Of a stretch of 64,000 nt of DNA, positions 40,864 through 42,703 are shown in pieces. This DNA is from Escherichia coli (lineage in GTDB: Bacteria > Pseudomonadota > Gammaproteobacteria > Enterobacterales > Enterobacteriaceae). The translations under genes were made by a program, and so were the position numbers. Under the pieces are notes generated by a model. That model saw only the letters and a list, made by a program, of their open reading frames with translations, was not told the origin of the DNA and searched no databases. The first letter of the stretch is position 1. Every line of letters starts with the position of its first letter. The stretch lies in NCBI RefSeq assembly GCF_003334335.1, contig NZ_QOWQ01000010.1, one strand, 5' to 3'.

Positions 40864-41588
40864 GTAAAAGCCGCTTAACGGTGTTTAGTTTCGTTCGCCG
40901 TTTTCTTTTGCGGTTAATGGTTGTCCTCGCCGTTTTCTGGGGCGGGGGCATCGCGTTGTTTAGCGTTGCGCCTGTTCCCTTCTCAGCGGTAATGGTCGAG
41001 CGACAGGTCAGCGCCTGGCTGCATGGCAATTTTCGTTACGTGGCACATTCTGACTGGGTCAGTATGGATCAAATCTCGCCGTGGATGGGACTGGCGGTGA
41101 TTGCCGCAGAAGATCAGAAATTTCCTGAGCACTGGGGCTTTGATGTCGCTTCCATTGAGAAAGCCCTGGCGCACAACGAGCGCAATGAAAACCGTATTCG
41201 CGGTGCTTCAACGATTTCTCAACAGACAGCCAAAAATCTCTTTTTATGGGATGGGCGTAGCTGGGTTCGAAAAGGGCTGGAAGCCGGATTAACGCTGGGG
41301 ATAGAAACGGTCTGGAGCAAAAAGCGTATCCTGACGGTTTACCTGAATATCGCCGAATTTGGCGACGGTGTGTTTGGCGTCGAAGCTGCGGCACAACGTT
41401 ATTTCCACAAACCCGCGAGCAAACTTACCCGGTCGGAAGCTGCATTACTGGCAGCTGTATTACCTAATCCACTTCGTTTCAAAGTCTCCTCGCCATCGGG
41501 CTACGTGCGTAGCCGTCAGGCGTGGATTTTACGGCAGATGTATCAGTTAGGCGGTGAGCCGTTTATGCAACAACACCAGCTGGATTAA
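40860..41588 (+). CDS. mtgA: monofunctional peptidoglycan glycosyltransferase MtgA
   Basis: 242-aa ORF with N-terminal TM anchor and transglycosylase motifs ([23 protein letters not shown]); overlaps the elbB stop. Confidence 0.9.
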
Positions 41589-42217
41589 GCTTCGCGCGAA
41601 GTGAGGGCCAGCGTTTTGCTCTCACGAGGTTGCAGATCTTTCTGCAGGGCAATAGCCAGCGCCGGTTGGGCGATAAATCGTTTCCATAACCGCTCTTGCT
41701 TACGCAGACAACACCACTTCGACCAGGTCGCCAGTGGAATCAATGTGCTTTCACCAATGTTGTCGCAGACGACCGGGATAACCTCTGACTCACTGATGCG
41801 GTGACAGAGGATATTCTGCGGCTTCAGCGACATCGTCACGATACGGTTATCCTGCAAATAACGCTTCAGCTGTTTCAGTAGCTGGCGCAGTTGTGCAATG
41901 TCTTCTTCGTAACGGCATTGTTCAGCAAATTCGGTCAGCGTAATGGAAGGCTTGCTGTCAAAATCTGCAATCACATCGTAGACATAACCGGTTCCGCAAT
42001 CCGTCTCAACGGTACCGTGATAGCGCGGTATTCCACTCCAGTCTTTTAACCGGCGACCAAGATGCGCGTAGTACTTTAACTCACGGCGGATCTCTTTATC
42101 GCCACCATCGCCACGATGGTAGACAATCTTGATACAGCGTTGGGCATCTTCCGGATGCGCATAACATTTCCGATGTCTTCCGGTGCCCAGGGGACTTTGT
42201 TCAGATAAGCGAATCAT
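41585..42217 (-). CDS. yrbL: YrbL (PhoP-regulated protein of unknown function)
   Basis: 210-aa product from the internal ATG ([28 protein letters not shown]...); the longer track ORF (start 42274) would run into the PhoP box. Confidence 0.8.
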
Positions 42218-42267
42218 GCCATCTCCTGGAAATATTTTCTGACGATCTCCAGTATGGTCGATTAACT

Positions 42268-42284
42268 TAAACAAAACCTAAACA
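42268..42284 (-). promoter_or_regulatory. PhoP box (TGTTTA-N5-TGTTTA direct repeat) upstream of yrbL
   Basis: Minus-strand reading tgtttaggttttgttta, about 50 bp upstream of the yrbL ATG at 42217. Confidence 0.7.
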
Positions 42285-42430
42285 ATGCCTCTTAAGGTTT
42301 TCTTAAGGTTCTTCTGAAAGTGAAAAGCGCACAAAATGTACAAATGACGTTGATTGAGAACGATTTCAGTACGTGATTTTCTTATTGTCGGGGGGAGTTT
42401 GAAGGGAGTTGTATGTCAAAGTGATGAAGA

Positions 42431-42703
42431 TTAATCTTCATCAAAACCAGAATTAAAGAGGGCGATAACGGCGGCCAGTGCTTCCTCTTCCTGTGGACCG
42501 GTCGCTTCAACTTCAATCTGCCGTCCTTTGGCAGAATCCAACATCAGCAGCGCAATAACGCTGTTGGCTTCAGCCTCGGTGCCTTCGTCATTACGTAAGA
42601 GCACTTCAGCGTCAAAACCCTGCATTAATTCAAACAGCTTCATTGCAGGCCGGGCATGCATGCCCAGCTTGTTTGTGATTTCAACAGTTTGCTTGACGGT
42701 CAT
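42431..42703 (-). CDS. ptsO: NPr, HPr-like phosphocarrier of the nitrogen PTS
   Basis: 90-aa ORF ([26 protein letters not shown]...), overlapping the rapZ stop. Confidence 0.9.

Follow-up and report, generated by a model that had tools for sequence, protein, structure and literature searches.

yrbL is a textbook PhoP target, and its PhoP site and its short start codon had both already been established. The closest described system is the yrbL promoter of Salmonella, which belongs to ‘architecture I’: a single direct PhoP box, TCGTTTAGGTTTTGTTTAA, lies 11 nt from the hexamer CATACT, and the box is covered by PhoP-P in DNase I footprints (Zwir et al. 2012, PMC3335776). S1 mapping revealed one transcription start, located at the third nucleotide after CATACT and preceding a leader of 32 nt; it was seen only in the wild type at low Mg2+ and was absent in a phoP mutant (PMC3335776). 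The same promoter carries a PmrA box about 24 bp from the PhoP box (PMC3335776), and PmrA has been reported in the literature to bind and repress the E. coli yrbL promoter. In Shigella flexneri, PhoP-P shifts a yrbL promoter fragment in EMSA, and a phoPQ deletion leaves yrbL expression at 0.02 of the wild-type level (Lin et al. 2018, PMC5775216).

The stretch of E. coli DNA analysed here, hereafter the window, is 64 kb long. Its minus strand carries ptsN-rapZ-npr and then yrbL, after which come mtgA and elbB on the plus strand (ORF list and RefSeq annotation). The 1 kb around the PhoP box matches E. coli K-12 at 99.9% identity and was found in 5,426 of 5,426 complete E. coli genomes. In RefSeq, K-12 yrbL (b3207; NC_000913.3, 3348452..3349084) is a CDS of 633 nt and 210 aa, listed at NCBI under the product name ‘PhoP regulatory network protein YrbL’, and its start maps onto the ATG at 42217 of the window. 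Two sets of relatives were compared with this locus. Eleven syntenic loci came from a collection of species-representative genomes (Escherichia clades, E. albertii, four Citrobacter and S. enterica subsp. arizonae), and five further loci were reached via homologous proteins (S. enterica, Pluralibacter, Siccibacter, Cedecea and an Erwinia sp.). Table 1 lists the features discussed below.

Table 1. Features of the npr-yrbL region, in window coordinates, ordered from the coding sequence upstream.
Feature	Position	Strand	Basis
yrbL CDS, 210 aa; protein-kinase-like fold family YrbL-PhoP_reg	41585..42217	-	RefSeq, NCBIfam, Pfam
Probable 5′ leader, ~31 nt	42218..42248	-	homology to the S1-mapped Salmonella start
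Shine-Dalgarno AGGAG, 5 nt 5′ of the ATG	42223..42227	-	sequence
-10 hexamer CATACT, 11 nt 3′ of the PhoP box	42251..42256	-	sequence
PhoP box TGTTTA-GGTTT-TGTTTA, direct repeat overlapping the -35 position of the yrbL promoter	42268..42284	-	sequence, conservation, literature
TTG opening the 229-aa ORF; not the real start, belongs to the PhoP box	42272..42274	-	ORF list, loss in relatives, weak anti-SD
PmrA (BasR) box CTTAAG-AAAAC-CTTAAG, repressor site, 6 nt upstream of the PhoP box	42291..42307	-	sequence, literature
TTGTACATTTnGTGCkCTTT, invariant element	42324..42343	-	conservation

The PhoP box reads TGTTTAGGTTTTGTTTA from 42284 to 42268 of the minus strand, with half-sites at 42284-42279 and 42273-42268 separated by the spacer at 42278-42274. 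It is oriented as the gene and matches the PhoP-box consensus, (T/G)GTTTA-5 nt-(T/G)GTTTA in direct orientation, with no mismatch. The original prediction had recognized this repeat from the letters alone, and its placement proved accurate. The ATG was said to lie about 50 bp from the box, and the measured separation is 50 nt (42267..42218). The prediction had also put the box inside the longest ORF. This part stands only halfway: the ORF start at 42274 does fall within the box, but only 7 of the 17 box bases lie within the ORF, and the box straddles the start codon. Between the box and CATACT are 11 nt (42267..42257), which is the geometry of a class II (architecture I) promoter. The box is found at the same position in the aligned loci of Escherichia, Citrobacter, Salmonella and Siccibacter, and box, CATACT, Shine-Dalgarno and ATG can all be aligned across the relatives. 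This box is the published site at which PhoP binds the E. coli yrbL promoter; its sequence features are observed here, while binding and PhoP dependence come from the literature.

The -10 hexamer is unchanged in 13 of 13 Escherichia, Citrobacter and Salmonella loci and is also present in the Erwinia sp. locus. CATACT follows the box by 11 nt as in the mapped Salmonella promoter, and transcription should therefore begin downstream of the TTG. By homology, the E. coli start would lie near 42248, although a position a few nucleotides further downstream fits the usual spacing from -10 to +1 equally well. The gap between CATACT and the ATG is 33 nt in the window and 34 nt in S. enterica (locus L015). 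Subtracting the published 2 nt between the -10 hexamer and +1 from this 34-nt gap gives exactly the published 32-nt leader, so that the start codon used by Zwir et al. 2012 is the ATG homologous to 42217. The published 2-nt distance is unusually short, and the exact E. coli start could therefore shift by a few nucleotides. A PhoP-dependent RNA beginning 25-30 nt 3′ of the TTG cannot encode the extension that the longer ORF adds to YrbL. A generic sigma-70 promoter scan of 42100-42500 detected none; for a promoter that lacks a -35 element and depends on an activator, this outcome is expected and says little. Minagawa et al. 2003 reportedly mapped the 5′ end of E. coli yrbL. Among published start-site data, the Kim 2012 supplement has no yrbL entry in its start sites. 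A 5′TNET-seq paper presents the yrbL start site as a figure, and a nascent-RNA study describes a promoter-proximal pause and a start site at yrbL in log phase.

Together, these elements suggest how the promoter would work. Phosphorylated PhoP would occupy the two TGTTTA half-sites, which would stand in for the -35 element, and would recruit RNA polymerase to CATACT by class II activation, the ‘architecture I’ of the PhoP regulon. The transcript would start about 25-30 nt 3′ of the TTG, and its leader of ~31 nt would carry the AGGAG Shine-Dalgarno from which translation of the 210-aa YrbL would be initiated at the ATG at 42217. The 229-aa ORF would then be an artefact of carrying the reading frame back to whichever in-frame NTG first follows a stop. 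This account as a whole, with a PhoP-activated promoter, a transcription start 3′ of the TTG and a 210-aa YrbL from the ATG at 42217, is held with high confidence.

The longest ORF (41585..42274) opens with the TTG and encodes 229 aa, with the ATG internal to it at 42217-42215; the TTG itself (42274-42272) consists of the last spacer base and the TG of the second PhoP half-site. Pairing of the 20 nt upstream of the ATG with the 3′ tail of 16S rRNA yields -8.1 kcal/mol, within the top 2.2% of random positions on the same strand. The corresponding value upstream of the TTG is -5.8 kcal/mol, at a distance of 12 nt from the codon, and is reached by 13.6% of random positions. The Shine-Dalgarno is conserved as (G)GAG in the aligned relatives. 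Protein families agree with the shorter start. The NCBIfam equivalog NF007671 (210 positions) scores 396.2 bits against a cutoff of 227, and its positions 1-210 cover residues 20-229 of the long ORF, which places model position 1 on the Met at 42217. In Pfam PF10707, model positions 1-184 fall on residues 21-204 of the long ORF. Homologous sequences fall into 116 clusters, of which the large ones span 210-211 aa at full coverage, and representatives from Escherichia, Citrobacter, Salmonella, Siccibacter, Superficieibacter, Pluralibacter, Enterobacter and Cedecea share an N-terminus of the form MI(R/Y/H/L/P/S)..., with LS commonly following as MI(R/Y/H/L)LS. A search for a solved structure that fixes the YrbL N-terminus found none, its sole match being a marginal one to a kinase, and a literature search for N-terminal proteomics of YrbL or start-site ribosome profiling found none.

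An exact-sequence look-up showed that the 229-aa form has been deposited as an unnamed ‘hypothetical protein’ (EFJ67126.1, EFJ87211.1 and others, from HMP-era E. coli assemblies; 19 contigs), together with one JGI/IMG entry. These records belong to a cluster of 2,869 members that is otherwise composed of 210-aa proteins, and they are residual mis-annotations from old automatic pipelines.

Comparison with relatives points the same way. The position of the TTG is occupied by TTC in Escherichia sp. MOD1-EC7003, three Citrobacter and Siccibacter, by TTA in Salmonella and by CTG in E. albertii, and in total 9 of 14 compared sequences lack the TTG. Reading upstream in the frame of the ATG, the first stop comes after 5 codons in S. 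enterica subsp. arizonae and after 16 in E. albertii and C. amalonaticus; in-frame stops also occur in S. enterica subsp. enterica and Siccibacter. The gap between box and ATG is 50, 51, 52 or 54 nt across genera, with indels that shift the frame. Variable columns are spread evenly over the three codon phases of the 57-nt extension (13/12/13 of 19 in 14 sequences), compared with 3/4/15 in the first 57 nt of the CDS. Even within Escherichia, the extension peptide changes from ID to SP, from R to S or C and from F to P, and the first 19 residues of YrbL are identical in five of six Escherichia relatives, with a single residue differing in the sixth. On these patterns, the 57-nt stretch upstream of the ATG is non-coding. 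That E. coli retains the TTG is due solely to its place in the PhoP box.

The prediction that the longer ORF is an artefact and the short start correct is thus upheld by promoter geometry, the Shine-Dalgarno, RefSeq, family models, homologue N-termini and relatives, all of which favour the ATG at 42217. The conclusion that yrbL begins there and encodes 210 aa is well supported; it is already the accepted annotation, and its confirmation is therefore not new.

The TTG at 42274 might nevertheless be an additional real start, used on PhoP-independent read-through RNA from rpoN-hpf-ptsN-rapZ-npr to produce a minor 229-aa isoform in E. coli and its closest relatives. The frame between TTG and ATG is indeed open in E. 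coli, E. whittamii and three other Escherichia lineages, and the 229-aa protein figures in some GenBank records, although these are the unnamed calls of old pipelines described above. Neither folding nor the scan of 42100-42500 identified an intrinsic terminator in the npr-yrbL spacer of the window (42344-42430), where just an AT-rich hairpin spans the npr stop codon; in contrast, folds of C. amalonaticus, Pluralibacter and Siccibacter contain canonical hairpin-plus-T-run terminators at this place. The pattern scan missed clear terminators of this kind in relatives, and its negatives weigh little. Lacking a terminator between npr and yrbL, read-through RNA containing the TTG may exist. Its translation from this codon, however, would depend on weak anti-SD pairing 12 nt away and would yield an extension that has no codon periodicity, changes radically even within Escherichia and is absent from the family models and from all well-populated protein clusters. 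The codon itself gives way to TTC in Escherichia sp. MOD1-EC7003 and to CTG followed by a stop in E. albertii. Such an isoform is accordingly considered very improbable, and the ATG at 42217 is retained as the start of yrbL.

A fortuitous resemblance to the PhoP consensus, in a repeat that would not regulate yrbL and whose position would be uninformative about the start codon, is hardly credible: short motifs are generally degenerate and a looser consensus does give chance-level matches in the window (KGTTTA-N5-KGTTTA with one mismatch allowed, 2 sites against 0.9 expected), but the exact TGTTTA-N5-TGTTTA occurs a single time in the 64 kb, both strands counted, where dinucleotide shuffles predict 0.01 occurrences, box and -10 hexamer are positionally conserved across genera, PhoP-P binds the same sequence in Shigella, whose yrbL is strongly PhoPQ-dependent (PMC5775216), the orthologous Salmonella site has been footprinted (PMC3335776), and the NCBI product name cites PhoP. 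The second of the two looser sites is a one-mismatch PhoP-box-like repeat, TGTTAATTGTTGGTTTA, at 50359-50375 on the minus strand, inside the 5′ end of the ORF 49417..50394; a count of two is at chance level.

Immediately upstream of the PhoP box, the minus strand reads CTTAAGAAAACCTTAAG from 42307 to 42291. This is the only site in the window that follows the pattern YTTAAK-5 nt-YTTAAK, for which 0.10 occurrences are expected, and the aligned loci conserve it across genera. The centres of the PmrA and PhoP boxes are 23 bp apart in the window. Regular-expression matches of a ‘PmrA-like’ kind that overlap the PhoP box were set aside as artefacts of a loose pattern.

Further upstream, a 20-bp element is located 126 nt 5′ of the ATG, about 95-75 nt 5′ of the probable transcription start. 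Escherichia, Citrobacter and Salmonella share 19 of its 20 positions without variation, and Siccibacter and Pluralibacter keep it in part. Its conservation is stricter than that of the PhoP box, and none is seen in the surrounding spacer. Its position 3′ of the npr terminator in three genera (C. amalonaticus, Pluralibacter and Siccibacter) places the element on the yrbL side. The 64-kb window holds no second copy, and an Rfam scan of the npr-yrbL spacer gave no match to the element, returning only a sub-threshold chance snoRNA. Binding sites of OmpR (C1), RstA (RstA box), MarA/SoxS/Rob (marbox), Fis, CRP, NtrC, TorR and sigma-54 were considered for the 20-mer and rejected, as no consensus among them accommodates both halves or the necessary spacing; a search of the literature for a link between these regulators and yrbL found nothing. 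The element may conceivably be a third, so far undescribed operator that serves a further regulator or signal at the PhoP/PmrA-controlled yrbL. This proposal, drawn from conservation, is a tentative one and on balance doubtful, and the minor TTG-initiated 229-aa isoform from npr read-through is a less likely alternative still. The 20-bp element is the only part of the locus that could lead to something new.

Several observations concern the yrbL gene and its family more broadly. mtgA is convergent with yrbL, and the 3′ ends of the two genes share 4 nt at 41585-41588; in a published RNA-seq survey, the pair is named as a candidate ‘excludon’. Codon 88 of YrbL (about 41954-41956 of the window) specifies Ser88 here and Gly88 in K-12, and the exact 210-aa variant of the window is already in public databases. 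Some E. coli carry a 213-aa YrbL with a GDG duplication within the GDGGDK loop. YrbL-family genes of ~50% identity occur in a human gut metagenome contig as a convergent pair adjoining a Kdo-kinase-like gene and dnaE; they sit outside the npr-mtgA context, and the family therefore has paralogues in other genomic settings. A fragment 98% identical to E. coli YrbL is encoded on the 420-bp contig NZ_JUET01000135.1 of the Tannerella forsythia ATCC 43037 assembly, where E. coli contamination is almost certainly the explanation.

The analysis is of limited importance outside annotation hygiene, where it upholds the reference 210-aa start. The locus also illustrates why longest-ORF callers overshoot: an in-frame TTG is held by selection on a transcription-factor site and not on protein. 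What emerges is a compact and well-conserved promoter with two response-regulator inputs, in which a PhoP activator site abuts a PmrA repressor site.

This arrangement is shared with the Salmonella yrbL promoter, which has the same 11-nt spacing from box to CATACT, the same overlap with the -35 position, a PmrA box just upstream, the same start codon and the same npr-yrbL-mtgA order. The leader is 32 nt in Salmonella and about 31 nt, by homology, in the window. The half-sites differ: both are TGTTTA in the window, whereas the Salmonella loci (L015 and L012) have CGTTTA followed by TATTTA, the paper giving TGTTTA for 14028s. Where E. coli has the TTG, Salmonella further reads TTA, and stops interrupt its extension frame, so that no long-ORF ambiguity arises there. 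The PhoP site of Shigella flexneri yrbL, a 19-nt tTGTTTAggtttTGTTTAa, is identical to that of the window, with no difference detectable at the site. Among the class II PhoP promoters of E. coli and Salmonella, mgtA, phoP, slyB and pmrD resemble yrbL in their direct (T/G)GTTTA-N5-(T/G)GTTTA box one helical turn 5′ of the -10 hexamer. yrbL differs from these four in that its box stands 11 nt from the -10 hexamer instead of 12, and in its additional repression by PmrA through the adjacent box.
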